64,000 bases of DNA from Candidatus Poribacteria bacterium (GCA_965222225.1 CBDCTK010000002.1:2912001-2976000), one strand, 5' to 3'. Counted from the first letter of the stretch, positions 674 through 60,325 are shown. A program made the numbers and translations. The notes: generated by a model from the letters alone, not told the origin.

Positions 674-935
674 GAACCTGTTTGAAAAATAGATGTCAAA
701 TCCATTTTGAAGCTGTTGAGTGCTATAATCTGTAGCCCCGCTGGGGCTTAGGTGCGTGGGGTTTCGGCGTTTCCTACACACCTTCATGGATCTCTATCGC
801 AGTCGCTATTCGCTCCCTTGATCGCACTCTGGGGCTTTTAGAGGCTTGTGCGCCGTGCGCACCCTACAAGATCCCTGATGAAAACCTTGGTTTTGAGGCG
901 AAATGTATTACAAAAATGAAATCTCAAACAGGTTC
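674..935. mobile_element. MITE with perfect 12-bp TIRs and a TAA target duplication (IS5-family-like ends)
   Basis: GAACCTGTTTGA at 674-685 and TCAAACAGGTTC at 924-935, with TAA on both sides (671-673, 936-938). It contains REP hairpins and one 35-bp element. Related left ends occur at about 5361, 14079, 17217, 17468, 17719 and 39511. Confidence 0.75.
788..822 (+). repeat. 35-bp micro-element copy
   Basis: GGATCTCTATCG CAGT CGCT ATT CGCT CCCT TGAT, followed by C. Confidence 0.9.
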
Positions 936-1414
936 TAAGTGTGGGAATGAAACTTGCTACAGGAACGCGTGTTTGCCCTATGAGTCCAAGTTGATTGCAA
1001 TGATACCCAATATGGTTCTGGTGGCTCCGATGTATGCGTTCTTGACACAACTGCTTGACACTTCCAACTACCGGGTGGTTTCTGCCGAGATTATAACAGA
1101 TATAGTCATTTCAATCAAGAGTTATGCATATAGGATTTACACTGTTCGGTTTGTAGGAGCGAGTTTTGCTCGCGATAGGAGGTCGCGATTCGGAGATCGC
1201 TCCTACAATCCTTTGGATGCGTCACTGCGTAAGTCCTAAGTTAATTTCATTTCCACACTTAATGGTTAATTCGCTAAGTATTTATGTATTATCCGGACAT
1301 CAAAGCCCCAGAGGGGCGACACTTGGATTACGTCCCAATCGAAAACATCACAAAGCGAGAGTTAGGCGGCTGCATCAATTTGGACCATGTATTCGAGACA
1401 CATCTGACCTTTCT

Positions 1415-1622
1415 GGATCTCTATCGCACGGGATCTACTATCGCCCTCCCTAATCAGTCGGCTGATCGTTGTTCACTCGTTTGATCGCAGTGCGCACCCT
1501 ACAAGATGGCAATTCAGAATTGTACTTTTGTACAAAGTCGAGCTTAGCACGGGGAACTCTATCGCACTCATTAGCCATTCGCTTAATTCTTCGTCATCCA
1601 GCCAGTTGATCGCTCGCTTGAT
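1415..1622 (+). repeat. Cluster of nested and stacked 35-bp micro-elements with a REP
   Basis: The copy at 1431-1466 sits inside the copy at 1415-1485. At 1552-1622 one full copy is followed by two extra 3' ends. Confidence 0.85.
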
Positions 1623-1755
1623 CGCGGTAAGAGAGGAAATCGGGATTTGACATCGAAGAATTTCGTCGGCGCAAAAACGGAAGCAGAATAGTTGGGTTTC
1701 ATTGCATTCAACCCAACCTACGGGCTACCCTATGCCGCGTCGTCCCATGACAACC

Positions 1756-4700
1756 CTACTTCACAATCACCATCCGCCGCAAATCACGAAACGAAGGCGT
1801 CGCCAATACATAGAAATAGATCCCGCTGGCAACCGACTCCCCACCGTCGTTGCGACCATCCCAATACGCCGCATTCCCCCGATCGGTGTAATACCCCGCC
1901 AGCTGGTGCCCCATCTCCAACCGTCGCACCAAGCCACCCTTGGTATCATAGATTGTCAGCGTGACATCTGATGCCTCCGCCAACCGGTACGGAATCCACG
2001 TTTCCGGGTTGAACGGGTTCGGATAGTTCGCCAATAGGGCGGTCTCCCTTGGCGCAACGGATTCCAAAAGCTGTTCAAACACCTCAATTCCTCGTTTCAC
2101 GATTGCATCCTTATCCGCAATGGACCGTGCGGCGGTTAGCCAATCCCGAATCGCCCCTGCGGTCAGCGCGTGGGATGCCTCCCCAAGCAGTGAAGGCGCG
2201 GCTGCGGCATCGTCTAATGCGATCGCAACCATCACCAAATCTTGGATGTTTACAACCCCGTCTCCGTTGGTATCTGTCAACGAACTTCGACCTTCATTCC
2301 CCAAACCCGACGCAACCGCCACCAAATCCAAGATATCCACGAAGCCGTCGCGGTTCACATCCTCGGCTCGAGGAGGCCGCTTGGTAAACTGAACCAGAAC
2401 CCCTCGATCCTGTAGGCTCGGAATGTGGGTATAGATTGAGCGATAACTCAGCGGGTTATTCTTCACCTGAACAGCGTCTTCACTGCCCAATTCCGTATTT
2501 GCCACCAAGGGGGAGAGATCGGAAATACTGTTGGAATTAAGAATCACAAATGTCAGGTTGGTCAAATCCGACAAGGGGGAGACATCCGATATTCTGTTGC
2601 CGGCAACAAAAAAGAGTCTAAGGTTAGTCAAACCCGCCAAGGGGGAGATATCCGATACTGAGTTCGACCCAAGATCTAACCAACTCAGATGGATCAAACC
2701 CTTCAGAGGGGAGAGCTCCGAAATCGAGTTGTTCAGGAGAATCAGCGTTTTCAAATTGGTCGCCGCCTCTAACCCGGTCAAATCGCTAATTGAAGCCTTT
2801 CGCGCTCCCAGCTTGGTCAAAGTCGCCATGTCGGCGCCTCGGATAGTGGCGCTTGGCGACACCCCGAGTGCCGATGCGACCGCCGCACGCAGGTTGGGAT
2901 CGGGAATATCAATCTCAGCCGCCCACTGAATCCACTCGGAAGTATCCCATAGCCCGACCATGCCCGTTTCCGCTCCCGAAGCGAGGGGCGTCCCGTCAGG
3001 GGAAAACGACACGGACGAAATCCTATCGGTATGTCGAAGCGTGGCTAGGTTTTCCCCGCTCGGAACATCCCATAGCTTAACCACAACACCTCCCACGGAA
3101 GCGAGGGTGTTCCCATCGGGCGCATACGACACGGAGGTGACGCGTCTATGCTGTAGTGTGTGGATAGTCGAGTTGGTCGCAGCGTCCCATACCTTGATTG
3201 TCCCATCCGACGACGCGGTGGTGAGCGTGCGCCCGTCCGGCGAATACGACAAAGTAGCGCCCCGCGAGTTTTGAAGTGTGGCGGTAGTTGAGTTGGTCGC
3301 CACATTCCATAACTTTACCGTCCCATCCCGCGACGTGGTGGCGAGCGTACTTCCATCGGGCGAATACAACACGGAGGTGACCTGATCGTGTCGAAGCGTG
3401 GCGATGGTTGAGTTTTTCGCTACGTCCCATAACTTTACCGTCCCATCCCACGACCTGGAGGCAAGCACACCTCCATCGGGTGAATACGATACAGAAGTGA
3501 CATGATCATTCCGAAGCGTTCCGATGACATCGTTTGTCGCCGCGTTCCACAACTTGACCGTCCCATCCCACGACCCCGACGCCAGCGTGCGCCCGTCCGG
3601 CGAAAACGCTACGGTTCTGACGGAATCCGCATGCCCCTCAAGGGTGGCGATGGTTTCCCGCTCTGCCACGTTCCACAGCTTGACCGTGCCATCATCAGAC
3701 CCGGAAGCAAGAGCCTTACCATCCGGCGAAAACGATACCGAATTAACCCTCTCTGTATGCCCTCTGAGGGTGCCGATATAATTGGGCGGAAGTTCCATAA
3801 GCGTAAGCCTTTCATGATGCCAATTTCCCTCCGTATCAACGACTTGAATAGTAATCGGATGGTTAACCGGGTTGGAAAGACTCGTCAAGCCGTTGGACGG
3901 AATAACGCCGTCATAATCGAATTGGATGAGGGCATTCGTTTCGCCTCCCAGCACACGACACACCTTTACTTCACGTTGTCTGGCAGCCGAGTGTGGTACT
4001 ATTGTATTAACGAATAGCTGTGCTTGGAGAAGCCCGTCGAGATCGCCAATTCTGAATTCTAGGGAGACGCTCTGTGAGCCGGTTAGATATCCACGCGGTG
4101 ATACGAGTGTGACGGTGGGCCGCGATCCCTGTTCGATTGGCACCTCGGGATTGAGGTACGGGTGACCGGTGAGGAACTCGGCGCTGCACGCGGATAACTG
4201 ATCGTAATCCGGCCCATAAGACATGATGTACCCGCCATCGTGAAAATTATGCTCCAATCCGAAGGCATGTCCCAGTTCATGCGCCGCTTTCGCCCAGTGA
4301 AATTCATCGGTAACCAAAGCACTCCCGCCATCCTTGTTATACCGTCGTCCCAAGCCCTCTATCTCTCCGGACAGCCTATACGTACTATTATCGATGACAA
4401 TTAGATAGACATTCTTACTAAGACTAAACGCAGCCCCAATCTCAGGAAATACAGCCTCGGCATTATTGCGCGCGCCAATGTAGCGACTGTCGGGATGCTC
4501 GCCATTCACGACGTGAACCACCGGTTCGTCCTGTGCGTCGGTCTCAATCCGGAAGGTTTTGCTCCCATGTCCATGCGCCTCCATCTGATCGGCAAAAAAG
4601 CTCTGTATGGCGCGCATCTCATCCTTCATCCTCTGAACCACGTCGGGGCGAGATGGGCGGTCATTGGGGATAAAGTAAACCATCCGCACCGTTCGCGGCT

Positions 4701-4875
4701 CCCCCACATCCAAGGTTGGGGTTCCGACATCGCACGGCTCGCCCGGCTGCCAATCGGGAGTCCCGCAAAGCGGCGTTCTGTCCTTCGCCGACGATTGGGA
4801 ATAGGCTGGATTCAGTGTGGAGGTGGCGAGACAAACCAACAGGGGGAGCGTGAAACGAAGAAGTTGCGTTGTCAA
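1756..4875 (-). CDS. Secreted multidomain protein: metzincin-type Zn protease + WD40 repeats + LRR + dockerin-like + FlgD/T9SS-like C-terminal domain
   Basis: Signal peptide; HELGHAFGLEH with Met-turn IMSY; about 7 WD40 repeats (GH...SPDG..LASGS.DGTVKLW); IPDPNLRAA cap and LRRs; DVNRDG/DTNGDG; ANYPNPFNPETWIPY. Confidence 0.9.
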   Translation of the reverse strand: MTTQLLRFTLPLLVCLATSTLNPAYSQSSAKDRTPLCGTPDWQPGEPCDVGTPTLDVGEPRTVRMVYFIPNDRPSRPDVVQRMKDEMRAIQSFFADQMEAHGHGSKTFRIETDAQDEPVVHVVNGEHPDSRYIGARNNAEAVFPEIGAAFSLSKNVYLIVIDNSTYRLSGEIEGLGRRYNKDGGSALVTDEFHWAKAAHELGHAFGLEHNFHDGGYIMSYGPDYDQLSACSAEFLTGHPYLNPEVPIEQGSRPTVTLVSPRGYLTGSQSVSLEFRIGDLDGLLQAQLFVNTIVPHSAARQREVKVCRVLGGETNALIQFDYDGVIPSNGLTSLSNPVNHPITIQVVDTEGNWHHERLTLMELPPNYIGTLRGHTERVNSVSFSPDGKALASGSDDGTVKLWNVAERETIATLEGHADSVRTVAFSPDGRTLASGSWDGTVKLWNAATNDVIGTLRNDHVTSVSYSPDGGVLASRSWDGTVKLWDVAKNSTIATLRHDQVTSVLYSPDGSTLATTSRDGTVKLWNVATNSTTATLQNSRGATLSYSPDGRTLTTASSDGTIKVWDAATNSTIHTLQHRRVTSVSYAPDGNTLASVGGVVVKLWDVPSGENLATLRHTDRISSVSFSPDGTPLASGAETGMVGLWDTSEWIQWAAEIDIPDPNLRAAVASALGVSPSATIRGADMATLTKLGARKASISDLTGLEAATNLKTLILLNNSISELSPLKGLIHLSWLDLGSNSVSDISPLAGLTNLRLFFVAGNRISDVSPLSDLTNLTFVILNSNSISDLSPLVANTELGSEDAVQVKNNPLSYRSIYTHIPSLQDRGVLVQFTKRPPRAEDVNRDGFVDILDLVAVASGLGNEGRSSLTDTNGDGVVNIQDLVMVAIALDDAAAAPSLLGEASHALTAGAIRDWLTAARSIADKDAIVKRGIEVFEQLLESVAPRETALLANYPNPFNPETWIPYRLAEASDVTLTIYDTKGGLVRRLEMGHQLAGYYTDRGNAAYWDGRNDGGESVASGIYFYVLATPSFRDLRRMVIVK

Positions 4876-4918
4876 AAATTAAGCTCCTTTATACCCGGAA
4901 TTGCGTGGAGGCGCTCCG

Positions 4919-5013
4919 ATCAACCGACTGATTAGGGAGGGCGATAGTAGATCCCTCAAGCGAGTGGATAGGGAGCGATCAAAGGAATGGATAATGACTG
5001 CGATAGAGTTTCC
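4919..5013 (-). repeat. Triple nested 35-bp micro-element
   Basis: Reverse complement reads GGAAACTCTATCG CAGT CATT ATC CATT CCTT TGAT / CGCT CCCT ATC CACT CGCT TGA / GGGATCTACTATCG CCCT CCCT AAT CAGT CGGT TGAT. Confidence 0.85.
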
Positions 5014-5029
5014 ATACCCAAGTTGCTAC

Positions 5030-5905
5030 TTAGCTCGACTTTGTACATTTGAACGTCATAACGGACAGCGTCAATTAGGCGTTGAAGAAGAACGAGGGAG
5101 ATTTTGATGGCCTGGCTTATTTAGTTGACCATTGAAGAATTCCCCAGCGGTTTCTGATACCATACAACCTGTCGCCCCGCCGGGGATTCGGTGTGGGGTG
5201 ATTCGCTGTTGCTATACACCTATCGCCTCTCTGGGGCTTACAAAGGCCTCTTGGATCTCTATCGCGCGCGCTAACCGCTTGCCTGATTCTATTCGGTCAT
5301 TTGATCCGTACAAGAAGCGGTGGGCATTGCCCACCCTACAAATGTACAAAGTCGAACTTAGAACCTGTTTGAATAATTGGTGGCAAAGCCATTTTTGGTC
5401 ATTTGTAGAAAGTTTTTTCATGTTTTCATTGTGGTCTGCTACATACCTATGGGATTGCTATCGCACTCACAATTCGTTCGTTTGATCCCCGCTGGGGGTT
5501 AGGTGCACGGGGTTTTGGTGTTTCTATACACCTTCATGAATCTCTATCGCATTCGCTATTCGCTCCCTTGATCCCACTCTGGGGCTTTTAGAGGCTGGTG
5601 CGCAGGGGATCTCTATCGCAGTCATTATCCATTCCTTTGATCGCATCCTACAAGAGATTGCCTTGATTGGCAGTGTTTCTAGTCATTGCAACTAAGAATT
5701 ATACATTTAGGATTTGCGCTGTTCGGTTTAGAGTGGCGCATTTTATTGCGCGTATTTTGTCGGAGCGAGCGTTACTCGCGACGGGGAATCGCGACCAGGA
5801 GATCGCTCCTACAAAGGCGTTTTCGGGTAGAATGAAACGTCGGAAGTTCTTTTTTTTGTACGCGATTTCTTTTGGATTTCCGCTCAACCCAACCTACGGG
5901 CTGAC
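5030..5905. repeat. Intergenic mosaic of MITE fragments, GTAG-REPs and at least four 35-bp elements
   Basis: 5030-5180 resembles 49533-49675; 5487-5655 resembles 736-870; 5680-5812 resembles 1103-1208. Micro-elements at 5253, 5451, 5538 and 5606. Confidence 0.8.
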
Positions 5906-5912
5906 CACTGTT

Positions 5913-8900: not shown

Positions 8901-11900
8901 GCCGGATTGATTGGCGACTACCGAATCCTCGTTTTCCTCTGCTTCGTTGCTCTCCATACTGCTAGGCGACCCAATTTGGAACGAGTTTATCCGGAACGTG
9001 CCATCGGCTAATTCGGCGCGAATCGGTTCGACGGTTAGCATGTCGCGGTTGTTAAAATCTACGTGTAAATTGTCAAGCGTCAGTTGCGCCGAAATTCGAT
9101 CAAGGCTGTAGCCGTCCCCGTCAAGTTCGAGCCGCGAATCGACTATCGCTCGGGTAATCTTGTCGGAGAACAGATACTCGGAGATTTCGTGACTGCCGAT
9201 CTTGTTGACGAAGTGCCTCGCGAAATCGGTTAGATTGATGCCTTTTCCATCTAGCTGAAGTTGAAAAGAGGGATCAAGCGACCGAATAGGGAGCGCGATA
9301 GTGATCCCCTCAAGCGACGATTCTCCCTCCTCCCTTTCATTGGAATCGCCCTCCGCGTACGACAGAAAGAGATCGATGAGTGTGGTTTGCGTCTTTGTTC
9401 GAGGCAGCTGCCAATTCGCCTTCGCTTGATAGCGCCCCTCTCCTATCTGCCATGCGGCGGTATCTGCGGTAACTGTCAGCAGCTTGTCGGATGTCCCGTC
9501 TCCGCCAACGACTCGCAGATCAAGGTTTATGTTTTCAAGCGGCTGAGGGTAATCGAGAACGTGCACTTTGGCGTCGGTTACGCCGATTGATGCGTCAACC
9601 CTCGGGTCGCTGAACGTTCCGGTGAGATGTGCGTCGAGGTTTAGCTGTCCCTCCGTAGACAGCTTAATCGTAGGTTGCCAATCGTGGATTGCCTCGAAGA
9701 GCTGCTCTAGATTCATGGAACCCAAATCAAAATCCACGATGTATGTTCGGAGATCGACGGTTGAGGATTGAAGGCTATCGAGATCCACGGCGGCAGTGGC
9801 TTCGGCTTCCACCGGCACGCCCGTCAGGAGAAAATTGAAGGGTTCGACTGTCAGCGTTTGGTCGGCATAGGCAACCTTGCCCGACGCCTCGCTTACGACG
9901 ATCGGAACGGGGGCGTTTTCAACGCGGAGTTCGGGAATCGCCCACTCAAGCGTGAGTTCGGGGTTTGCGAGGCTTCCGGCGCCGATGAGCTTGTAGCTGG
10001 CGCTTCCGGTTAGGGTTGCGGGGAGGTCCAACACGCCGCATAAGGGTTCAAGCCGGAAGTCTCGGGATTCGGCGACAAAATCAATCGACTGATCGTCTAG
10101 CGTCAAGCAGCAAGTCACGAACGGGGTGTCAACGGTTTTCCCTTCTAAATTGGCGAGCGAGAAGGAATCAACTCTCCAGATGTTGTCGATAAAACCGAAC
10201 CTGATTGGCGCCGCATTTGTCAACCGCCTGCCGTTGACTTCGAGTGCGAGGGAAGAGATCGACGTATCAAGCGTGAATTGTGTCAAATCTAGCAGTGTGC
10301 CGCTGAGTTGGAATGTGCCGTTAGCCGTCGCCGGAATCTCTTTTAAGGCATTGTGAAATATGCCTAGTATGGGACCGATGTTTATCCCGTTGCTCCGCAT
10401 GAAAAGTTGGTAGGGGTTGCCGAGGGTCGATTCTATGATGCCGCGTATCTGGCTGCTGCCGTCAAAGCCGATGCCTTCGAATCGGAGCGCGTTCTCGGTG
10501 AACACGCCGCTGATTCGAATCTCGGGGGAATTACGATTGCCATCACCTTCAGGGATTATGGTGTGATTGTCGTAGGTGATGTCGGAGAAATCGAAATTGA
10601 CATCAACTCGCGGATTGGCGGCATTGCCTTCACCGGTCGCGTGCACGAGGAGGTCGGCGTCCAACAGAAAATCCGGTTCCGGTATAGCGCGGGCAATCGC
10701 AAGTTCTTTCAATCGCATCGGATCGCTCTGAAACTGGAGTTGATAGTCAAGCTCCGGCGTGATTTGGAAATTGATGACGCCGCGTTGTTCCCGCGCGAAC
10801 ACCTCAAAGTCGGACACGTGCACGGTGTAATCCTCTATGACTAGGGGAAGGATTAGGGGGTCGAGCGCCAAATCCCAGGCTTTCGCATCCGCGACGTTGA
10901 GCCTGCCGCGCCCGTCAATGCCGTTTAACGTCCCGTCAAGCGCCAGATTGCCGGTGACAACACCCTCGACGGGGTACTCGGCGCCTGCCAATAGCCGCAC
11001 ATAATCCGAAATCTGAAAGGGATGGGCACGGACGCGGAACTCGACGGGGATATCGCCCTCGACTTGAGCGACTCCGTCCAGGGTCAATAGGCTCTCCCCT
11101 TTGGATAGGCGGACGGGTTGGAGGGTTACGCTGCCGTTCCGATAATGGAAGTTCGCTGTCAACACGCCGATGGGCACATCGAAAAGACTGGCTTCGGGGA
11201 TTTCCAGAAATCCGGTTAGCGGAACATCCGATGTAATCTTTCCGCGGAGTGTCGCGTCGCCGCCGAGATTGGGGGCGCGTATGATTTCCATCAATTTGCC
11301 GGTGTCGATGCGCCGTATCTCCAGATCGAGATTCAACGCCCCTTCTAGACCGGCTGCGCCGTTGACTCGGATGTTGGCGTCGTCGAGATTGGCGGCAACT
11401 TGGAGTTGGTTCCCCGCTATCTCAAAACTGGCTTCCGAAACGCGGATGCGAACATCGTTCATCGTGGCTTGGTCGATTTTCAACCCGCCCGTAAGCGTTA
11501 AGGAATCAGCGATCGCCGATTTCGGATTCTCTTCGCTTTGCGGCGACACCTCTTGAGTTGTCGGCAGCGAGCCGCTGATGTGGAGGCGGCTGTCGAGGAT
11601 TCCAGTCATGGTGAGAAAGTCTTCGGGAAGGTCGATGAACACTGGGAGGATTTCCTCGACGTTGGCGCCCTCAAGCTCTGCCCAGCCATCGTAGGCAATC
11701 GGCGATTCTGCGTTCTCTTCGGATGAAGGTGTCTGCGCCGTGGTATCCCGAGGCGATTGCTCGGAAATGGACATTAGAGAAAAAAGACTTCTTCCCAGGC
11801 CCCCGAAACGCGCCTCCAAACCCGCGGTGAGTTTGCCGGACGCGAGCGTCCCATTCACGTCGGTCAACTTAAGCGCGTTCCGGTTGAATTCGGCATTGAC

Positions 11901-13094: not shown

Positions 13095-13156
13095 TGGTGT
13101 AAAGGAATGTCCGGTGACCTGTGACCAACAAAAACGGGTGTCTCTATTTTCCCCGT

Positions 13157-13999: not shown

Positions 14000-14398
14000 A
14001 AAAACAGTGGCTAGTGGGGAAATCCATCTAAGAAGGGAATCGGCGATGTGATGATTGGAGATTCCGTTCTAGCGCTTAGAGCCTGTTTGAATAATTAGGT
14101 GTCAAAGCCATTTTTGGGCATCAGAGGCATTTAAGTTGCTACTACTTTGAAATTCTCAACCGTGATTTGATGATTGAAGATTGCTCCTACAGGACATACT
14201 TCATTAAGAAAAGGCTGGTGCGCAGTGCGCACCCTACATCGGCTATCGACAAGCTCCCGATCCGCGAGGAGTGTATCAAGCCGTTGTTTGTTAGGATTGT
14301 GGATCGTCGTAGGTTGCATAAAAACAGTGGCTAGTGGGGAAATCCATCTAAGAAGGGAATCGGCGATGTGATGATTAAAGATTCCATTCTAGCGCTTA
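13919..14398. repeat. 160-bp direct duplication of the tlyA 5' end and upstream region, flanking a 160-bp MITE/REP insert
   Basis: 13919-14078 matches 14239-14398 with about 4 mismatches. The insert 14079-14238 begins GAGCCTGTTTGAA and ends GCACCCTACA. Confidence 0.9.
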
Positions 14399-16950: not shown

Positions 16951-17155
16951 TAGACTCCATGACAGGTTGAGACAACCGTCAAATTATACCATTTCTCTAA
17001 AATTCAAGTGCATTGATTGCGTGGGTCAAGTAAAGAAACTTATTTGGATCGGAGTAAGAGGCCTTGTCTCCACGCAAAGTGGGCGGGGGAAGGGGATCTC
17101 TATCGCATTCGCTATTCGCTCATTTGATCGTCGCTGGTGCGTTCAAAGGCTGGTG

Positions 17156-17727
17156 CGCAGTGCGCACCCTACAAGATGGCAATTCGGAATTGTACTTTTG
17201 TACAAAGTCGAGCTTAGGGCCTGTTTGAATAATAGGTGGCAAAGCAATTTCGGTCACTTTGGGCGCGGCTTTTTCATGCTTTTGTGGTCGCCTGCTATAC
17301 ACCTGTCAGGATTTCTATCGTATTCGCTATTCGCTCGCTTGATCCCACGCTGGGGCTTTCAAAGGCTGGTAGGATCTCTATCGCGCTCATTATTCATTCG
17401 CTTGATCGCAGTGCGCACCCTACAAGATGGCAATTCGGAATTGTACTTTTGTACAAAGTCGAGCTTAGGGCCTGTTTGAATAATAGGTGGCAAAGCAATT
17501 TCGGTCACTTTGGGCGCGGCTTTTTCATGCTTTTGTGGTCGCCTGCTATACACCTGTCAGGATTTCTATCGTATTCGCTATTCGCTCGCTTGATCCCACG
17601 CTGGGGCTTTCAAAGGCTGGTAGGATCTCTATCGCGCTCATTATTCATTCGCTTGATCGCAGTGCGCACCCTACAAGATGGCAATTTGGAATTGTACTTT
17701 CGTACAAAGTCAAGCTTAGGGCCTGTT
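17156..17727 (+). repeat. Tandem repeat with a 251-bp unit (2.3 copies), built from REP + MITE end + two 35-bp elements
   Basis: Units start at 17156, 17407 and 17658; units 1 and 2 look identical. A further 35-bp element lies at 17093-17128. Confidence 0.9.
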
Positions 17728-19612: not shown

Positions 19613-19676
19613 ATCAAAGGAATGAATAATGACTGCGATAGAGAACTCTATCGCGTTCCCTATTCGGTCACTTGAT
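19613..19676. repeat. Two divergent 35-bp micro-elements fused at their 5' ends; the right one overlaps the ymdB stop
   Basis: ATCAAAGGAATGAATAATGACTG-CGATAGAG-AA-CTCTATCG-CGTTCCCTATTCGGTCACTTGAT. Confidence 0.85.
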
Positions 19677-20513: not shown

Positions 20514-20578
20514 GAAATCTCTATCGCACAGGATTTTCTATCGGGAGTTCTATCGCCTTCCTAATCCAGTCAGTTGAT
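20514..20578 (+). repeat. 35-bp micro-element preceded by two stacked 5' ends
   Basis: GAAATCTCTATCGCAC / AGGATTTTCTATC / GGGAGTTCTATCG CCTT CCTA ATC CAGT CAGT TGAT. Confidence 0.8.
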
Positions 20579-20586
20579 CGGTTTCG

Positions 20587-23339: not shown

Positions 23340-23533
23340 TTGTCTGAATCGCAGGATTTGCTATCGCGCTCATTATTCATTCGCTTGATCGTCTTTGATT
23401 CAACCGGCGTCAGTTGCCTAATTATGTGTATGCGTTGGCTTCTGGATTCCCAAACTGTCGTGGATTAAAGATCACCCGCTTTTAATCTGCGCAATCTGTG
23501 TAATCCGAACATCTTGGCGCGCTAGCGATTCAA
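23340..23533. mobile_element. MITE-like element (TCTGAATCGC...GCGATTCA ends) carrying a 35-bp element
   Basis: Homologous along its length to 29517-29720; contains 9-mer AATCTGCGC/AATCTGTGT repeats. Confidence 0.7.
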
Positions 23534-26438: not shown

Positions 26439-26581
26439 GAAACTCTATCGATCAACTGAGTGAATAACGAAGGATTAAGCGAATGAATAATGAGCGCGAT
26501 AGTGAATCCTGATAGAAAGTCCTACTCCCTATTCAGTCGCTTGAGGGATTTACTATCGCCTTCGCTATCCGCTCAGTTGAT
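26439..26581. repeat. Four nested 35-bp micro-elements in both orientations
   Basis: The outer forward copy is split by a reverse copy, which is itself split by another reverse copy. A fourth copy is inserted at the outer TGA|T and ends 1 bp from the stop codon at 26583. Confidence 0.85.
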
Positions 26582-29516: not shown

Positions 29517-29720
29517 TTGTCTGAATCGCGGATTTGCTATCGCACTCACTATCCGTTCGCTTGATTTGATTAAATTCGACCAATCATCTTCGATGCAACC
29601 GGCGCCATTTGCCTAATTATGCGTATGCGTTGACTTCAGGATTCCCAAACTGTTGTGGATTAACGGATTGCCCGCTTTTATCTGCGCAATCTGTGTAATC
29701 CGTTTAATCAGCGATTCAGA
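29517..29720. mobile_element. MITE-like element with TCTGAATCGC/GCGATTCAGA TIRs
   Basis: 10-bp inverted ends; second copy at 23340; a third left end at 41702; contains a 35-bp element at 29529-29565. Confidence 0.75.
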
Positions 29721-35843: not shown

Positions 35844-36035
35844 GAAGCAGTGGCCAGTGGCTAGTGAAGCGGAGATCCGCGCGTGATGGGAGGAAGAGGA
35901 CGAGGGGAAGGGTGGTAAAGCAGACAACGGGAAAACGAGTGAACGAGAAAACGGGAAGGGGGGAAGGTTGTAAGAGTGGAAGGAAGAAACCGAGTTTTGA
36001 GGAAAAAACTCGGTTTCAGCTTTCAGAGGCTGGTG

Positions 36036-36070
36036 GGATCTCTATCGCGCTCCCTATTCGGTCACTTGAT
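36036..36070 (+). repeat. 35-bp micro-element inserted in a REP hairpin
   Basis: GGCTGGTG[GGATCTCTATCGCGCTCCCTATTCGGTCACTTGAT]CGCAGTGCGCACCCTAC; the empty site GGCTGGTGCGCAGTGCGCACCCTAC is at 14213 and 17148. Confidence 0.9.
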
Positions 36071-36769: not shown

Positions 36770-38014
36770 ATGAGAGAAACGGATTTTGTGTTGGACGGAA
36801 CCCTACGCTCGGATGGAGCATCAATTCGCGACGTAGGGTCGAATCATTTCAGATTGACGCTGGGGCGTGTACCCCAACCCACGATGGCTACGGCGCAGAT
36901 TCCGCCGCATCTCGGAAAGCATTATCCGGGGCGGCAGGAGGGTTGGGCAAACTGGGTGCGATTCGAGATTGCCCGCAACCCCAAGGGGAACGCACTTCGG
37001 CTTGATGTGGAATTCGACGCGCCCGAAGAGTGGGGCACATTTCGCTCGCAAAAGGAGGGCGGCGTGCCGTATCCGTTCACAAACTACGATCCGTGCTGGT
37101 CTTACGACGGGGAGGAGTGGAGGTATATCTCGTGGGAGGAGGATTTTGTTCCGGGACGCGCGGGGACGCTCATCTTTCCACCGTTCGAGCAGGATCGGGT
37201 GCTGGTTTGCACGCAGTTACCGATGACCGTTGAGGATGCGGAGGCGATGCTTGCGGAGTGGCAAGAACACCCGCATGTGGAGGTGCATATTCTCGGGGAG
37301 TCGATCGGGGGGCGGAAACTTCATCGCGTGACCATCACCGATCCGCAGGGAAACGTGCCGCCTTCACGCCGCTGGGTGCATCATGCCGCCAATCAGCATC
37401 CGGGCGAAGGGGTGTCGCAGTGGTACATCGCGGGAATGGTAAAGTGGTTCTTGAGCGATGAGGCGGCGGAGGCACGCTCTTGGACGATTGGGCATTTCAC
37501 GCTCATGATGAATCCCGACGGCGTCGACCATGGGTGGTGCCGCGTCAACGCGCAGGGGATTGATAGTAACCGGAATTTTCGGGTGGAGGGGTCTGATCAG
37601 GCGCTCCAGCCACATGAGGCGTTCATCTTCCAGCGAGATTTTGAGTCGCTCCTACACTCCGATGCTCCGGTGACGACGAGTTGGGCGATGCATTCGTCGC
37701 CATCGGCAAAACTGTCACCGATGTTGGTTGGTCGGGGACCGGAGTTGCGGGGCGTGTTGGGGCCTGACGAGGATTTCGGGGCGTTGTTGAAGGAGCGTGA
37801 TCCGAACAACTTGATTAACGACTATCGTGAGCATCATAGGGGAGTGACGCCGGAGTGCTTTTGGGACGGGGGACCGCATCATGCGTGGGGTATCACAACG
37901 TTTCTGGTTGAGGGAGGCGGAAAGGGTCTTAACAAAGCGCAGGCTATCGAGGCTGGGGGTATTCTTATGCGGGCGCTTACGGCGTATTATGCTGGGGATC
38001 AACTGAGCGGATAG
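36770..38014 (+). CDS. M14 zinc carboxypeptidase family protein
   Basis: LGESIGGR, ANQHPGE, MMNPDG, GIDSNRNF, downstream H and E ligands. Confidence 0.8.
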   Translation: MRETDFVLDGTLRSDGASIRDVGSNHFRLTLGRVPQPTMATAQIPPHLGKHYPGRQEGWANWVRFEIARNPKGNALRLDVEFDAPEEWGTFRSQKEGGVPYPFTNYDPCWSYDGEEWRYISWEEDFVPGRAGTLIFPPFEQDRVLVCTQLPMTVEDAEAMLAEWQEHPHVEVHILGESIGGRKLHRVTITDPQGNVPPSRRWVHHAANQHPGEGVSQWYIAGMVKWFLSDEAAEARSWTIGHFTLMMNPDGVDHGWCRVNAQGIDSNRNFRVEGSDQALQPHEAFIFQRDFESLLHSDAPVTTSWAMHSSPSAKLSPMLVGRGPELRGVLGPDEDFGALLKERDPNNLINDYREHHRGVTPECFWDGGPHHAWGITTFLVEGGGKGLNKAQAIEAGGILMRALTAYYAGDQLSG

Positions 38015-38106
38015 CGAAGACGATAGAGATGGTGGGCGGTGCCCACCCTACAGAGGTCGCGACCTGGAGAGGGATTTCTATCGCACTCCTTATTCAGTCG
38101 CTTGAT
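37998..38106. repeat. Two 35-bp micro-elements: a reverse copy over the M14 stop and a forward copy in a REP
   Basis: 37998-38030 reverse complement ATCTCTATCG TCTT CGCT ATC CGCT CAGT TGAT; 38071-38106 splits GGAGA|TCGCTCCTAC. Confidence 0.85.
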
Positions 38107-39522: not shown

Positions 39523-39753
39523 TGGTGGCGAAGCCATTTTTAGTGATTTGAGATACTACACACCTTTCGCATCGCTCGTGCTTTCAAAGGCTGATCGGGA
39601 GTGCCCACCCTACAGGGTCGCGATCGGGAGATTGTTCCTACAGACAATCAAAGCGGACGGAAAAAAGCTATCGCACGGGATCTCTATCGCACTCCTTGTT
39701 CAGTCGCCTGATCGCTACTACAATCGAAACCCGAGTCCGCGTGCACGACGCTG

Positions 39754-41711: not shown

Positions 41712-41838
41712 GGGATCTCTATCGGGATTTACTATCGCCTTCGCTATCCACTCAGTTGATCGGATTAAGGGATTTCTATGGAATCTCTATCGCAGTCATT
41801 ATCCATTCCTTTGATCGCTCATTATCCATTCGCTTGAT
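41712..41838 (+). repeat. Stack of full and partial 35-bp micro-elements inside a MITE end
   Basis: Full copies at 41724-41760 and 41780-41815, with extra 5' and 3' ends. Confidence 0.85.
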
Positions 41839-49415: not shown

Positions 49416-49532
49416 GGCAATCAATGTGTAGGAACGCTCAGGGAACCCACGGCTGACGTTCTTTCATTGGCACACGACCGTATTTGTCGGACACAGAACG
49501 GGAATTTATGAGCCACAAAGCTTTTTGTTGCC

Positions 49533-49762
49533 AAGTTCGACTTTGTACATTTAAGCGGGATAACGGACGGTGTCAATTAAGCGTTGAAGAAAAGCGGGGG
49601 AGATTTTAACTAGCTGGTCTTTTTGGTTGAACATTGAAAAAGTCGTCAGCGGTTTCTGATATTGTGCAACTTGTCAGGATCTCTATCGCCCTCACTGTGG
49701 GATCTTCTATCGCCTTCGTTATCCACTCAGTTGATCGTTCGGTTGATCCCGCGCTGGGGCTT
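49533..49762. repeat. MITE-like repeat with two nested 35-bp elements
   Basis: Homologous to 5030-5185; the copy at 49699-49735 is nested in the copy at 49677-49747. Confidence 0.75.
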
Positions 49763-53463: not shown

Positions 53464-53831
53464 CAGTGGCCAGTGGCCCGTGGCTAGTGACCAGTAAAGG
53501 AGAAAAATTTGCAAATTATGAACAAGTTAAAAAGTTATCAAGACTTGGAAGTTTGGAAGAAATCAATCGAGTTGGCAGAGATGGTCTATCGAATCTCTGC
53601 GGAGTTTCCGCCGGAGGATCAAACGAGCGAATAGCGAGTGCGATAGAGATCTCTAACGGAGACATTTCTGATTCTGGCGCAGCGGTTGGGGATCGCCAAA
53701 GCCGAACAAATCAATCCCTTACTAGCCCTGGCGGGGGACATTGGACGGATGCTCAACGGTCTCAAACGCTCGCTGCGATCCAGAACTTGACCGACGCGGA
53801 CTTCCCGCTGGCACTGACCACTGGCGACTGG
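53464..53831 (+). mobile_element. Heptamer-repeat-flanked four-helix-bundle cassette inserted in-frame in mod
   Basis: Left end AGTGGCC AGTGGCC CGTGGCT AGTGACC AGT; right end GCTGGC ACTGACC ACTGGCG ACT; lies between FGEPDI and QVTVHGVDVF. Confidence 0.8.
53518..53790 (+). pseudogene. Four helix bundle protein (23S rRNA IVP/bAvd-like), internally deleted, in the +1 frame of mod
   Basis: MNKLKSYQDLEVWKKSIELAEMVYRISAEFPPE-[35-bp element, stops]-TETFLILAQRLGIAKAEQINPLLALAGDIGRMLNGLKRSLRSRT*. Confidence 0.85.
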
Positions 53832-54187: not shown

Positions 54188-54223
54188 GGGATCTCTATCG
54201 CCCTCGCTGTTCGCTCGGTTGAT
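54188..54223 (+). repeat. 35-bp micro-element copy
   Basis: GGGATCTCTATCG CCCT CGCT GTT CGCT CGGT TGAT. Confidence 0.9.
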
Positions 54224-54265
54224 CGGTTTCTTCCACTAACCACTGACCACTAGGCACTGCATTTC

Positions 54266-56338: not shown

Positions 56339-56595
56339 ACTGCCGCGGCAATTGTAGGAGCGATCTCCAAATCACGACAGGTCGAGAATCGGAAGTTGGT
56401 TTTCACTTGGATTTCCGAGGCATCAATTGGAGCGGATACTCCGGATGCAATTCATAGTCTCGGTGTTATCGGAAAATTCCTTTCAACCCAACCTACGGGC
56501 TGGCTCGCTATCCTCGGGTTGATCTCTATAGGAAACTCATCACTCTCCACTAGTCACTGCCTCCCCACTCCCCACTGTCTCTCCACACAATGTGC

Positions 56596-56624
56596 TTGAC
56601 TTTTGTCGCAAGCGCCGCTATGAT
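56596..56624 (+). promoter_or_regulatory. Sigma70-like promoter
   Basis: TTGACT-17 bp-TATGAT upstream of the PhyH gene. Confidence 0.55.
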
Positions 56625-56764
56625 GTTTACCAATACGCTAGCGCACGTTGACAACAGTAGTAGGGTGGCGCCGCCCGCCATTGCTTGTTCGGCACCATAA
56701 ATCCCTGCATCTTAACTCGCCACTCTCCACTAACCACTGCTCTTACCATGCAAGGGGTTCGTGT

Positions 56765-57628
56765 ATGAAAATCATTGATTCGGATATGCAGAAACAGTTT
56801 ATGAATGACGGTTTTTACGTCTTCAGAAATATGCTTGAGCCAGAACTGATCGATACGTTGAGGGGAATCACGGATGATGTGCTCGCGCAGCAGGAGGAGG
56901 CGCATTTCGAGCAGCAACGCGCGCCGGGCAGCATGGTGCTCATCGATTGGGAGATGGCGTACCGGCATGATGTGCTAGCTGAACTGATTGCTCACCCGAA
57001 AATGCTGAAGGGGCTGTCTGAACTGGGATTCGCGGAGCCGAAGTTTGGGCATGGGCGCATCATCAGCAAGCCGCCGCACAGCCCGCGATTGTTTTGGCAC
57101 GAGGACGGCAGGTTCTGGTACGATCCGGTCAGTTATACGCCGCAGCCCATCCAGTGTTTTCTGATGTACTATCTCGTGGACACCGCGCCGGAGAACGGGT
57201 GCTTGCGGGTGATTCCGGGATCGCATCTGAAGCGCCACGCGCTGCATGACCAAGTTCCAGTGCGGCATGCCGAAAAATTGAAAACGTATGCGGATCCGCA
57301 TCACATCGCTTTCCAACATGCGGAGGGAGAGATTGATGTGCCGGTGAAGGCGGGGGATGCGGTGATGGGCTACGGCACGCTGTTTCACTCCGCCCACGCC
57401 AACCAGACGAATCAACGCCGGACGGGGCTTACGATGTGGTATTATCCCGATTTCGTCGACCTGCCCGAGCACACCCAAGCTACAGTGGCGTCCTTGGAGA
57501 CCGACACCCAAGTCACGAGATGCTCGCCGGGGCAGAGGCAGCGTCTTATGGAGCCACTCAGGATTGTGTACGAAGGCGATGCCGAATCCATCCCGCAGCA
57601 GTGGACGCCGGGAGAGGATTTGAGATAG
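56765..57628 (+). CDS. Phytanoyl-CoA dioxygenase (PhyH) family protein
   Basis: F..DGFYV, KPP....FWHED, ENGCLRVIPGSH, GD.......LFHSAHANQT..RR. Confidence 0.9.
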   Translation: MKIIDSDMQKQFMNDGFYVFRNMLEPELIDTLRGITDDVLAQQEEAHFEQQRAPGSMVLIDWEMAYRHDVLAELIAHPKMLKGLSELGFAEPKFGHGRIISKPPHSPRLFWHEDGRFWYDPVSYTPQPIQCFLMYYLVDTAPENGCLRVIPGSHLKRHALHDQVPVRHAEKLKTYADPHHIAFQHAEGEIDVPVKAGDAVMGYGTLFHSAHANQTNQRRTGLTMWYYPDFVDLPEHTQATVASLETDTQVTRCSPGQRQRLMEPLRIVYEGDAESIPQQWTPGEDLR

Positions 57629-57801
57629 CGAAGTGGATGCCGCAGAACATGAGCACACTACGCCCGGTTATAGCTGCAGAAACCGAATCGACGCACGCCG
57701 CACGAGTTCCGGCACTCCCTTTGGGCACCTCTTGACCTAACTCCGTACTTTGAGCATAGCGTTCAATATTCATTTTATGTGACAACAAATATTTCTGACC
57801 C

Positions 57802-57830
57802 TTGAAAACTTAACATATGTAAGGTATAAT
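57802..57830 (+). promoter_or_regulatory. Near-consensus sigma70 promoter facing a repeat cluster
   Basis: TTGAAA-17 bp-TATAAT. Confidence 0.55.
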
Positions 57831-57842
57831 TCACCGGTATAT

Positions 57843-58044
57843 GTAGGGTGGGCACCGCCCACCATTCTTTCTACAGGATCAACTGCGATCAACCGAACGA
57901 TCAACTGAGTTGATAACGAAGGCGATAATAAATCCTACCTCTGTAGGAGGGGCATCTTGCCCCGACTAATCTTTAGCTGTGCGATTGGCATCTTTGACAG
58001 CGAAGGCGATAGAAGCTCCCTATAGTGTTCCCATAGAAATCCCC
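57843..58044. repeat. GTAG-REPs plus stacked reverse 35-bp micro-elements
   Basis: GTAGGGTGGGCACCGCCCACC; full reverse copy at 57900-57935 with extra 3' ends at 57878 and 57888; stacked 5' ends at 58005-58044. Confidence 0.75.
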
Positions 58045-58693
58045 ACGAGGCGTATTTCCAATAATTCCTTGAGCTACACCGTAATAAAATTAATCCAAGA
58101 TTATTTCTTTAATCTCCTTATTTTGTGTCTGAGGGATGCGGGAAAGTTCACAATCTATTCGCACAAATTCGCAGTTTTTCGCAGACCGCGGAAATCCCTT
58201 CCAACCCGCGTCATTACAGGTTTCCCGGGCGAGTTTTACGATTCGCGAACATATGCGAGGTGCAGAATTGCAACTCCGAATCGAATGCCATCAGGCGAGA
58301 TCACAAAAAATGTGGACAGCGATTAAACAAAGGGAGAATGACTGCGTTAAAGTTCCCACAGCGAATCCCGTGCGACAGAGCTCTTCAAGAACCACCCCTA
58401 AAAACATGAGCGCACTTTAGCGCACTTTCGTGAGACAAACCGGAACCTACTCGAACCGGCGTCATTACGGGATTCCAATGCAATTTCTGTCGCTCGCGAA
58501 CAAGTGCGCTTTTGGACGAAGTGTCTCCGCTAATTCAGAACAACAACGGTAATTGCCGATCATGAGAAGCGATGCCGTAAAAGTCTTTAACATTCCTAAA
58601 CCCGTTAATACGCAAACAATCAATGCGCCGGCGACCAAAACAAACGCACATACTCGCTAACACAGCCGGAGGCATACTCCGCACGAGGTAGTT

Positions 58694-60292
58694 ATGACTG
58701 AAGAGAAGCGACCGAATATTCTGCTGATCCTGAACGATGACATGGGTTATTCCGACCTCGGCTGCTACGGCGGGGAGGTGCAGACGCCGAACCTTAACAG
58801 GCTTGCCAACCGCGGACTGCGATTCACGCAGTTCTACAACACGGCGCGTTGCTGCCCTTCGCGCGCATCGCTGTTGACGGGGCTGCACCCGCACCAAACA
58901 GGCGTTGGACACATGACGGCCGATGACGGACTGGAGGGTTATCGCGGGGATTTGAATCATCGTTGCGTGACGATTGCCGAGGCGCTTGGCGCGACGGGTT
59001 ACCGAACCTATATGAGCGGGAAGTGGCACATTTCGCGTCACATACAACCCGAGGGACCCAAACACAGTTGGCCGCGCCAGCGGGGTTTCGACCGATATTT
59101 CGGCATCCTCTCGGGCGCCGCGAATTACTGGAAGCCGCATTCACTCACCCGTGGGGACGATTGGGTTCCGCCCGACGAGCTCCCGGACGAATTCTTCTTG
59201 ACCGACGCGATCAGCGATGAAGCATCGGGATTCATTCGAGACCATCACGCAAAATCACCCGATGACCCCTTCTTTAGCTACGTCGCCTACACGTCGCCGC
59301 ATTGGCCGTTGCACGCGCACGAGGAGGATATCGCGCGTTATGAGGGTCGATTCTCCGCCGGTTGGGATGCGCTGCGTGAGGAACGCCTGCTGCGTATGCG
59401 GGAGATGGGCATCTTGGAGGATTGCTGGGAATTGAGTGATCGAGATGCGTCGCAACCTCCGTGGTCGGATGCGGGGCATAAGGAGTGGAATCTGCGGCGT
59501 ATGGAGGTTTACGCAGCGCAGATTGACCGCATGGATCAGGGGATTGGGCGGATCATCAGCACGTTGGAAGCCACCGGACAACTGGAAAACACGCTGATTC
59601 TCTTCTTGGTGGACAACGGCGGGTGCGCTGCAGAATTGGGCGGGCCCAACACGCGTATCAGGCGAGATTGGCCCGTCTCACCGCCGCTGACACGCGATGG
59701 GAGACCGGTCAGCACGGGGAACGACCCGACAATTATGCCGGGACCGGAAACGACATATCAAAGCTACGGCGTGCCGTGGGCGAACTTGTCAAATACGCCG
59801 TTCCGCGAATACAAGCACTGGGTGCATGAGGGCGGCATCAGCACGCCGTTTATCGCGCATTGGCCCGAGCACATCACAGGCGCGGGCGAGTTTCGGCATC
59901 AGCCGGGACAGTTGACGGATGTGATGGCAACGTGTCTCGAGGTCGCCGGCGCGGCGTATCCGGGGGAGAACGATGGGAATCCGGTTTATCCGCTAGAGGG
60001 CACGAGTTTGACCCCCATTTTTGATAACCGGGACAACGGGGTGGGCGTGTTGTATTGGGAGCACGAGGGGAATAGAGCGGTGCGGCGAGAGAATTGGAAG
60101 CTGGTCACAAAGTATCCGGGGGATTGGGAGTTGTATGACATGGAGGCGGACCGCACGGAGTTGGAGGATTTGAGCGGGAAGTGCTCGGACATCGTGAAGG
60201 AGTTGAGCGGGTTGCACGCTGATTGGACGGATCGGTGTCAGGTTCAGCCGTGGAGGGATATTTTGGAGTCGCGGGATCAAGCGACTGGATAA
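58694..60292 (+). CDS. Arylsulfatase
   Basis: RPNILLILNDDMGYSDLG, CCPSRASLLTG, GKWH, PHWPLHA, DNG, HEGGISTP. Confidence 0.93.
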   Translation: MTEEKRPNILLILNDDMGYSDLGCYGGEVQTPNLNRLANRGLRFTQFYNTARCCPSRASLLTGLHPHQTGVGHMTADDGLEGYRGDLNHRCVTIAEALGATGYRTYMSGKWHISRHIQPEGPKHSWPRQRGFDRYFGILSGAANYWKPHSLTRGDDWVPPDELPDEFFLTDAISDEASGFIRDHHAKSPDDPFFSYVAYTSPHWPLHAHEEDIARYEGRFSAGWDALREERLLRMREMGILEDCWELSDRDASQPPWSDAGHKEWNLRRMEVYAAQIDRMDQGIGRIISTLEATGQLENTLILFLVDNGGCAAELGGPNTRIRRDWPVSPPLTRDGRPVSTGNDPTIMPGPETTYQSYGVPWANLSNTPFREYKHWVHEGGISTPFIAHWPEHITGAGEFRHQPGQLTDVMATCLEVAGAAYPGENDGNPVYPLEGTSLTPIFDNRDNGVGVLYWEHEGNRAVRRENWKLVTKYPGDWELYDMEADRTELEDLSGKCSDIVKELSGLHADWTDRCQVQPWRDILESRDQATG

Positions 60293-60325
60293 GGAGCGCG
60301 ATAGCCAATCCCGATAGAGATTCCC
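60276..60325 (-). repeat. 35-bp micro-element supplying the arylsulfatase stop, plus an extra 5' end
   Basis: Reverse complement GGGAATCTCTATC GGGATTGGCTATCG CGCT CCTT ATC CAGT CGCT TGAT. Confidence 0.85.

Follow-up and report, generated by a model that had tools for sequence, protein, structure and literature searches.

Repetitive extragenic palindromes (REPs) and their inverted doublets (REPINs) are described as short (20-40 nt), extragenic, high-copy and strand-asymmetric imperfect hairpins, and a single-copy Y1 enzyme, the REP-associated tyrosine transposase or RAYT, is believed to move them in trans (PMC3733652, PMC3116915, PMC6006769). How repeats of this size move is unresolved, and single insertion events are rarely visible. 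The small dispersed repeats (SDRs) SDR1-8 of the Nostocaceae, reportedly described by Elhai et al. in 2008 in Genome Res 18:1484, are said to be 21-27 nt long and to occur nested and in tandem; they have been without a mechanism since 2008. Integron attC sites are 57-141 nt long, carry R and L boxes, are found at the ends of cassettes in arrays and depend on IntI. Of the SDRs, SDR5 (21 nt) is reported to lie precisely within HIP1, between nucleotides 3 and 4 (PMC4390886, PMC13756078), and the account in PMC5861425 places no SDR outside the Nostocaceae. Members of the IS200/IS605 insertion sequence (IS) family excise and integrate as single-stranded DNA, precisely and beside a short specific sequence, and their movement is coupled to the replication fork (PMC5027513). 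Here we describe a 36-nt mobile element with a variable core that is dispersed through a 64,000-nt stretch of DNA from Candidatus Poribacteria bacterium (GCA_965222225.1 CBDCTK010000002.1:2912001-2976000; hereafter the window) and through the genome that holds it, and we compare it with these systems. The literature on Poribacteria in combination with repetitive extragenic palindromes, IS200 or repeats, supplements aside, yielded no description of repeats.

By the strict pattern CTATCG-N19-TGAT the window holds 30 copies, as against 0.13 expected (100 shuffles, maximum 2), and by a 38-nt profile built from copies of the same genome, with a cut-off score of at least 12, it holds 35; a preliminary description of the window had spoken of roughly 35-45 full or partial copies, counted by hand, and the observation is confirmed. 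The genome-wide scan named beforehand as a check found 874 strict copies in the whole genome (G000; 5.70 Mb, 2 contigs), and the profile found 1,309 on its main contig (C2); a scan of the whole genome at the same score gave 1,312 matches, with 0 in reversed and complemented controls. The position table of the 874 strict copies bears out the fixed scaffold, 19-nt core and N-base rule first read from the window: the scaffold is (G)GGAT[CT]T CTATCG C-NN-T C-NN-T AT[TC] C-NN-T C-NN-T TGAT, the next base is C in 793 of the 874, and the first N of each module is A, C or G and the second C, G or T (counting the C of CTATCG as position 0, position 7 has A402 C257 G210 T5 and position 8 has A8 C454 G189 T223). 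The full unit of about 36 nt consists of a 12-13-nt left part, (G)GGATyT-CTATCG, the core and TGAT, and the strict copies contain 438 different cores, the commonest of which occurs 47 times. By crude open reading frame (ORF) calling, in which 80% of C2 is called coding and the calls are rough, 1,154 (88%) of the 1,309 C2 copies are fully intergenic, 99 lie fully within a called ORF and 56 overlap one. Single copies make up 520 of the 838 clusters and pairs 228; among closely spaced copies, 23 nt on one strand is the most frequent distance (72 cases), and 25 nt on opposite strands accounts for 27. The terminal inverted repeats and target-site duplication of a miniature inverted-repeat transposable element are both absent, and an Rfam scan of the whole window at the gathering score gave 0 matches.

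The element is abundant in only 2 of the 31 Poribacteria genera (176 genomes) that were scanned with the scaffold pattern. These are the genus of the window (g1), in which all 10 genomes including G000 carry 459-1,094 strict copies each, and a genus of another family (g4), in which all 4 genomes carry 142-166; the pattern read backwards gave 0 matches in every genome of the scan from which these counts of the other g1 species and of g4 come. Among the first 100 g4 copies listed, inspected by eye, the scaffold is the same, the modules are complementary and fewer cores dominate. Six other genomes have 1-17 copies each, and in the four that were checked (G066, G146, G125 and G010) these lie on a few small contigs (C72, C83, C91 and C116 of G066), which looks like binning carry-over, the contigs maybe coming from a g1 member. 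Viral contigs gave 0 matches to the scaffold pattern. An adapter, a barcode or an assembly error is hardly credible as a source of the copies, since all nine other g1 species searched and the four g4 genomes carry the element in the numbers given, copies occupy conserved orthologous sites, and contigs from public runs of at least four different studies cover the region (20 of the 24 runs listed, from 10 studies, hold the window stretch or part of it); the preliminary description had itself named absence from independently sequenced relatives as grounds for suspecting an adapter or barcode. The Logan contigs of four public runs break at copies, the joints listed being repeat-to-repeat, with no bearing on polymorphism.

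Covarying base pairs in the variable core

Mutual information over all column pairs of the 874 strict copies peaks at columns 11-19, 8-22, 7-23 and 12-18 (1.20, 1.03, 0.80 and 0.47 bits, respectively), which are mirror positions carrying complementary letters; the next-highest value, 0.41 bits, lies in the left part. In an alignment of 31 window copies, read on the complementary strand with the fold ..(((..((..((.....))..))..))), 99.1% of 217 cells are paired as against 76.1% after shuffling, and 68 cells are changed on both sides as against 14.8 +/- 5.2, a number reached in 0 of 500 shuffles. The covariation score of this alignment is 0.70, and sliding the partner by 1-3 columns reduces it to at most 0.12, with at most 47% of cells pairing. 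Genome-wide, the 5,236 cells are 80.4% Watson-Crick, 11.2% A·C, 3.2% G·T (both as read on the motif strand) and 5.2% other. Copies whose four pairs are all standard, as read on the complementary strand, number 995 of the 1,309, compared with 148 +/- 12 with shuffled partners. Because A·C on the motif strand is G·T on its complement, the 3.5-fold excess of A·C (586 cells) over G·T (165 cells) puts the fold on the complement of the motif strand. The commonest minimum free energy structure that RNAfold gives for the complement is this same fold (151 of 400 copies).

On that strand the hairpin consists of a 2-bp stem, a tandem 5'-GA-3'/3'-AG-5' opposition, a second 2-bp stem and a G(RAT)A loop, and below these stems come one more A·G opposition and an ATC/GAT stem of 3 bp. 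The constant C and T columns of the motif strand are thus G opposite A on the complement, with one G·A closing the three-base RAT loop; we take these oppositions to be sheared G·A pairs. Constancy in the element is confined to the G and A positions and to the flanks, and the four Watson-Crick pairs can be nearly any pair provided that pairing is kept. Pairing also means that the absence of T at the first N and of A at the second is one rule seen twice, and it is possible that this rule avoids an internal AT-C, the sequence where copies insert. The preliminary description had treated the CNNT modules as freely hypervariable and the repeat as not a REP palindrome, both of which must be revised, as the four dinucleotides covary as hairpin base pairs in the window and genome-wide. 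Its view that this is an undescribed class was also overstated, since the four covarying pairs place the element structurally with the REP-like and SDR-like small hairpin repeats.

Of four features of REPs and REPINs the element shares one, being a short extragenic imperfect palindrome in hundreds of copies; the tag, the arrangement of repeats around a RAYT gene (REPtron) and the doublet are lacking. There is no GTAG or CGTC tag of the kind described for REPs (PMC3733652), the consensus being CTATCG/GATAG plus GGATC, and the inverted doublet reported as the REPIN unit (PMC3116915) is not seen, single copies being commonest. The element does not consistently bracket any RAYT gene (76 of 80 loci of the subclass-1.2 gene considered below, and seven loci of the L005 type). 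Its stem is only 2+2(+3) bp, interrupted by the fixed G·A oppositions, and its paired positions are hypervariable rather than copies of one master sequence. It also inserts into REPs, and clean single-unit insertions are visible. Integron attC sites share with it a conserved folded single strand with unpaired positions, free sequence at the paired ones and strand-specific recognition; their length, R and L boxes, cassette arrays and IntI were not seen for the element.

Filled and empty sites, and strand

When the two flanks of each copy are joined and the joined string is sought in the genome, an exact paralogous empty site is found for 109 copies, with insert lengths mostly of 36 nt (41 copies) or 35 nt (38 copies) and no duplicated target bases. 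The REP site GGCTGGTG^CGCAGTGCGCACCC (GGTG^CGCAG, the caret marking the point of insertion here and below) is found empty up to 36 times for each filled copy. Within the window, the empty site GGCTGGTGCGCAGTGCGCACCCTAC occurs at 14213 and 17148 with filled counterparts at 36035 and 17371, and GGAGATCGCTCCTAC is empty at 5798, 1192 and 56354 and filled at 38071; these are the sites first noticed, with 5798 in place of 5797. The early reading of a very short dispersed insertion lacking a target duplication and terminal inverted repeats is upheld by these sites and by the orthologous ones below, as is the net gain of about 35 bp; at some fills 1-3 target bases are replaced. The right flank CGCAGTGCGCAC occurs with 13 different cores and CGCACCCTACAA with 16, which indicates repeated independent insertions and not the amplification of one filled REP, and the 1,309 copies occupy 1,238 distinct 12+12-nt flank contexts.

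The gene block at 33.7-41.7 kb of the window is syntenic in most of the nine other g1 species, providing an orthologous alignment of presence and absence, the second check named in advance. In the 38.0-kb intergenic stretch, species G005 is aligned base for base but lacks the 36 nt at 38071-38106, reading ...cctggaga^tcgctcctaca... at a site that is filled in the window. Of 86 copies from the DNA of other species, 16 (15 distinct) have both flanks placed in G000, some of these flank pairs being repeats themselves and so not all safe orthologues; among the 16, some copies are shared between species with 0 to 4 core differences, and some are filled in G005 where G000 has intact REPs, with 1-3 target bases replaced. 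There are also clean 36-nt gains within other copies, up to three deep, and in G000 an already nested copy has an additional 36-nt one right behind its CTATCG. Both the hairpin and the mobility of the element are well supported, and with a 36-nt hairpin in about 1,300 places in one genome it counts among the smallest mobile elements observed.

The right junction is fixed as TTGA(T)^(T)C(G/C), and of 702 scaffold-strict copies 331 continue after TGAT with CG and 250 with CC; no consensus is seen in the left flank. Targets used repeatedly are GTG^CGCA (twice in one REP), GGAGA^TCGCTCC and, in a second hairpin repeat, CCTGT^CGCCCC, and within the element itself CTAT^CG, CTATCG^, CAC^TCG, TAT^TCG in the loop and TTGA^T at the end. 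The largest nesting class has 111 cases, mostly at CAC^TCG, and 396 of the 1,309 copies have another CTATCG no more than 32 nt upstream. Left ends vary (GGGATCT, GGGATTT, GGATTTA, AAGATCT and others), and a wider comparison of paralogues shows further length differences of 23, 17 and 19 nt for 84, 51 and 24 copies, respectively, the 23-nt class being core plus TGAT. At 72 places two 23-nt units, with different cores that are each self-complementary, stand behind one left part. Five tandem 38-nt units (TCCTACAAGA + CTATCG + core + TTGA), all with different cores, lie at C2:1578372-1578561, and the 100-kb bin at 1.5-1.6 Mb of C2, with 80 copies, is the densest in the genome.

The SDRs resemble the element in being very small dispersed insertions, SDR5 within another iterated sequence, with moving enzyme and function unknown. 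The 23-nt sub-unit would fall in their reported range of 21-27 nt, and tandem 23-nt units and nested copies are seen here. The hosts differ, being heterocystous cyanobacteria in the one case and Poribacteria in the other, as do the 36-nt full unit with its fixed 12-13-nt left part and the targets, REP stems and (T)CG instead of HIP1; the two are set apart here by description and not by sequence comparison.

The intergenic placement of most copies, the maintenance of pairing in two genera, the orthologous copies kept between species and the many copies within other repeats, where conversion between paralogues is possible, would each fit copies that are mainly functional host sites, serving nucleoid, replication or repair binding or as transcript-end structures, which spread by recombination or gene conversion with pairing selected site by site. 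We consider this quite improbable, since a single REP site carries 13-16 different cores and the contexts are so many, since clean 36-nt gains are seen at orthologous sites and within copies, and since an element present in quantity in only 2 of 31 genera does not answer a general host need. Orientation shows no link to genes (367 copies in the same and 428 in the opposite direction between co-directional genes, and rho 0.07 with gene-strand bias), which argues against a role at the transcript level, and we have rejected such a role.

Orientation is strict within REPs and follows local GC skew. Within REPs, copies lie 90 to 1 in one orientation in REP1 and 41 to 0 in REP2, 131 to 1 in total; by inspection, the target heptamer GTGCGCA is present on both strands of REP1. 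Across 514 clusters, 66% are '+' where GC skew is above 0 (n=244) and 30% where it is below 0 (n=270; Fisher p 2e-16), the 174 solitary copies away from REP feet behave similarly (64% of 87 against 28% of 87; p 2e-6), and in 100-kb bins orientation correlates with skew at rho 0.57 (p 7e-6). dnaA lies at the global minimum of cumulative skew (2.61 Mb on C2), so that skew has its usual meaning near the origin and the hairpin strand is mostly on the leading-strand template; elsewhere the curve reverses several times, a sign of either numerous large inversions or an uncommon organisation of replication. It follows that the motif strand is mostly leading-strand sequence, and the hairpin strand and the GTAG strand of the resident REPs tend to the other strand, the two being collinear and sharing a replication bias (24% versus 78% for GTAG).

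At least two families of GTAG-footed REPs are present in the genome, GTAGGGTGCGCACTGCGCACCAGCC and GTAGGAGCGATCTCC..., with about 220-230 copies each, the first having the strong strand bias just given; their sites in the window include 14213-14237, 17148-17172, 1192-1206, 5798-5812 and 56354-56368.

Candidate enzymes and mode of movement

Strand-specific, replication-linked behaviour without target duplication characterises single-strand HUH transposition (PMC5027513). The explanation we favour, on the anatomy of the element and with about even confidence, is that the repeat is a non-autonomous miniature element of REP- or SDR-like kind, moved in trans as single-stranded DNA, most likely by a Y1 HUH enzyme. 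The element would move as a single strand, and a protein encoded elsewhere would recognise the hairpin shape and its fixed flanks and would cut and rejoin next to AT^CG-like sites, following the logic of Y1 HUH enzymes (RAYT or IS200-type TnpA). As the sites show, insertion is without target duplication, in one orientation and directly 5' of (T)CG or CC as read along the motif strand, with GTAG-type REP stems, the second hairpin repeat and other copies of the element as favoured sites. Such self-targeting gives rise to nests and tandems, including the stacked 23-nt core+TGAT units. If any variant that keeps its pairs stays mobile, this would account for the several hundred core variants that co-exist.

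The IS200/IS605 family shares with the element the lack of target duplication, one orientation relative to a short target, hairpin recognition and a link to replication (PMC5027513). It differs in that the element is one hairpin and not a pair of distinct left and right ends, is 36 nt long as against hundreds, has a fuzzy left junction and the opposite polarity relative to the lagging-strand template, and contains no tnpA or tnpB, with no match to TnpB in the genome. No full-length IS carrying the ends of the element was found, and the flanks of the Y1 genes are different ones.

Five Y1_Tnp loci are present in G000, all on C2 and outside the window, in keeping with the early remark that the window holds no candidate enzyme. 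IS110 likewise has no match in G000; Cas1 and the tyrosine and serine recombinases were not searched. The best Y1 gene encodes 157 aa with HUH motif DHIH and YIKNQEAHH, and fits subclass 1.2 of Quentin et al. 2018, which that classification lists without a REP (PMC6006769). In G000, element copies in inverted orientation flank this gene and a truncated RAYT remnant (L005). The CTATCG foot before the element hairpin is also the foot (CTrTCG) of another repeat, which brackets the subclass-1.2 gene. As the centre of a REPtron the gene was rejected, the arrangement being absent in other species and the gene having its own bracketing repeat. In the Y1 tree the g4 genome G012 groups with g1 (support 93/87), a weak hint of co-transfer.

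The bracketing repeat, CTATAmAC-CTrTCG-CCCC-nnn-GGGG-C, was seen in four genera (L007-L019 and L025, with the gene at 1501-1971 of each locus), with a CGCTCC..GGAGCG variant in some lineages. It is dispersed in the window (e.g. at 740-760 and 5213-5240), where it is a target of the 36-nt element, and may be the cognate repeat of the subclass-1.2 Y1.

A number of observations weigh against our favoured explanation, and the first concern the enzyme. No candidate can be connected with the element: of the five Y1 loci examined, each has either other cognate repeats or the wrong distribution. For the subclass-1.2 gene, no copy of the element lies within 3 kb in other species and at 76 of the 80 contig loci scanned (most of them titled Poribacteria), the gene occurs in genera without the element (g6, 7 of 7; g3, 5 of 10) and was not found in 2 of the 4 g4 genomes, which have about 150 copies, and in all genera examined it is bracketed by the other inverted hairpin repeat (CTATAmAC-CTrTCG-CCCC-nnn-GGGG). 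The class-2 RAYT-like genes of the L002, L003 and L004 types were rejected as their orthologues do not follow the distribution of the element, and the L005-type RAYT was rejected because it is confined to g1 and in seven other species has GTAG REPs and no element copies within 1.5 kb. Others concern the element itself. The free hairpin has -5.3 as against -4.6 kcal/mol for shuffles with RNA parameters and is no better than shuffles with DNA parameters; this predicted support is weak and is not counted as evidence for the fold, and with stability so marginal the structure probably needs protein. The left junction is imprecise, and at some fills 1-3 target bases are replaced, which departs from the exactness of textbook HUH transposition. 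The polarity of the hairpin strand is opposite to that reported for IS608 and ISDra2 (PMC5027513), and the orientation bias could come instead from selection against hairpins in the template of the lagging strand. Nor does the explanation account for the stacking of 23-nt units, which may come from insertion of a 23-nt unit or from loss of the left part between two full copies.

Some of the same observations lend themselves to movement by an unrecognised non-Y1 activity, either a site-specific recombinase or a nuclease acting at (T)CG beside hairpins or an RNA/cDNA route with a reverse transcriptase (RT) and target priming, which we regard as unlikely, though with a real claim to attention. 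That no Y1 gene matches the element in distribution or adjacency would be expected, a precise right junction with a left end variable in sequence and length and 1-3 bases replaced is reminiscent of 3'-primed copying, and there are the 72 stacked 23-nt units without a left part. One RT gene is present (C2:4499560-4501572), encoding a 671-aa YVDD protein beside a 1,016-aa ORF; it is the sole RT match in G000, looks defence-type and has no special link to copies of the element. Also against this route, right parts are about as frequent as left ones (956 loop+arm+TGAT versus 1,002 CTATCG+arm), with no excess of 5'-truncated forms, and the replication-linked bias and strict strand choice in REPs are more easily explained by single-stranded DNA at the fork.

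Joining the parts of the Y1 explanation gives a fuller picture that is decidedly tentative and rather improbable as a whole. It would have a self-targeting micro-transposon with a unit down to 23 nt, defined by a G·A-punctuated mini-hairpin and not by sequence, carried as a single DNA strand by a Y1 HUH enzyme that has been domesticated (perhaps that of subclass 1.2, which has the CTrTCG foot in common and has never been linked to a repeat family), with tolerance of pair changes giving a neutral network of several hundred co-active variants, and having crossed between two Poribacteria genera of different families. If true, this would be the first system in which single REP- or SDR-sized insertions, the target rule and the enzyme are all readable. 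The family offers more than 1,000 copies in complete chromosomes of ten g1 species; its filled and empty sites are exact to the base, its target rule can be read and its orientation is linked to replication. Covariation also distinguishes the fixed positions (G·A oppositions and feet) from the free ones, and together these features make the enzyme's recognition code directly testable with oligonucleotides. Copies are usable as strain markers for Poribacteria-type symbionts and are a source of breaks in short-read metagenome assemblies.

The L005-type gene, a YIxNNP RAYT, lies at a conserved locus behind a glycosyltransferase gene (L144-L149; L005:1444-1719). Matches occur in 8 of 10 g1 genomes and in no other genus searched, with a full-length frame in six other species, and GTAG...CTAC 'double-foot' REPs lie in and around it. 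REPs of GTAG...CTAC form with a RAYT gene have been described for subclass 2.4 by Quentin et al. (PMC6006769). In G000 only the C-terminal 92 codons of L005 are left (C2:3560268-3560543), and element copies abut both sides.

Features of the window

Copies, partial copies and empty targets in the window, numbered from its first nucleotide; profile scores are from the 38-nt profile
Feature	Coordinates	Strand	Evidence
Full copy, in CTAyACACCT..TCGC-CCCC/GGGG hairpin repeat	787..822	+	strict motif, profile 52.5
Left part (GGATCTCTATCGCAC) of outer copy, split by nested copy at 1431; CAC^ is the commonest nesting point	1415..1429	+	sequence read
Full copy nested in outer copy	1431..1466	+	strict motif, empty-site test, profile 39.0
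Remainder (CGTTGTTCACTCGTTTGAT) of split outer copy, abuts REP (CGCAGTGCGCACCCTAC)	1467..1485	+	sequence read
Full copy, right end degenerate (TTAAT)	1552..1587	+	profile 39.4
Full copy	4919..4954	-	strict motif, profile 44.3
Full copy	4978..5013	-	strict motif, profile 49.6
Full copy, then half unit TCTATTCGGTCATTTGAT at 5288-5305	5252..5287	+	strict motif, profile 31.3
Full copy	5451..5486	+	strict motif, profile 48.2
Full copy	5537..5572	+	strict motif, profile 51.7
Full copy within REP	5606..5641	+	strict motif, profile 52.9
Full copy	9273..9308	-	strict motif, profile 53.2
Full copy	17093..17128	+	strict motif, profile 55.5
Full copy, in first repeat unit of the duplication (about 251 bp)	17308..17343	+	strict motif, profile 51.3
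Full copy filling REP site GGCTGGT(A)^CGCAGTGCGCACCC	17371..17406	+	strict motif, empty-site test, profile 54.7
Full copy, second copy of duplication	17559..17594	+	strict motif, profile
Full copy filling REP site GGCTGGT(A)^CGCAGTGCGCACCC, second copy of duplication	17622..17657	+	strict motif, empty-site test, profile
Full copy, head to head with 19641 copy	19613..19648	-	strict motif, profile 49.8
Full copy	19641..19676	+	strict motif, profile 48.9
Full copy	20543..20578	+	strict motif, profile 43.8
Full copy	23354..23389	+	strict motif, profile 51.3
Second 23-nt unit (core+TGAT), tandem behind 26474 copy	26451..26486	-	profile 20.5, 23-nt spacing
Full copy	26474..26509	-	profile 45.8
Full copy	26546..26581	+	strict motif, profile 49.7
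Full copy	29530..29565	+	strict motif, profile 46.0
Full copy filling REP site GGCTGGTG^CGCAGTGCGCACCC	36035..36070	+	strict motif, empty-site test, profile 54.8
Full copy; orthologous G005 site also filled, 4 core differences	37998..38033	-	profile, species comparison
Full copy; orthologous G005 site empty (GGAGA^TCGCTCCTAC)	38071..38106	+	species comparison; paralogous empty sites too
Full copy nested after CTATCGCAC of outer fragment	39677..39712	+	strict motif, species comparison, profile 48.3
Full copy directly behind solo left part GGGATCTCTATCG (41713-41724)	41725..41760	+	profile 50.2
Full copy nested after GGGATTTCTAT	41780..41815	+	profile 52.1
23-nt unit CGCT CATT ATC CATT CGCT TGAT directly behind 41780 copy	41816..41838	+	sequence read; tandem class
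Full copy	49700..49735	+	strict motif, profile 48.8
Full copy	53618..53653	-	strict motif, profile 55.0
Full copy	54188..54223	+	strict motif, profile 54.5
Full copy, slightly degenerate (ATTATCG)	57900..57935	-	profile 39.1
Degenerate copy	58322..58357	-	profile 21.8
Full copy	60276..60311	-	strict motif, profile 46.7
Empty target, intact REP GGCTGGTG^CGCAGTGCGCACCCTAC	14213..14237	+	string search
Empty target, intact REP	17148..17172	+	string search
Empty target GGAGA^TCGCTCCTAC	5798..5812	+	string search

The direct duplication of about 251 bp listed above (17308-17408 and 17559-17659) carries two copies of the element in each repeat unit, with identical cores.

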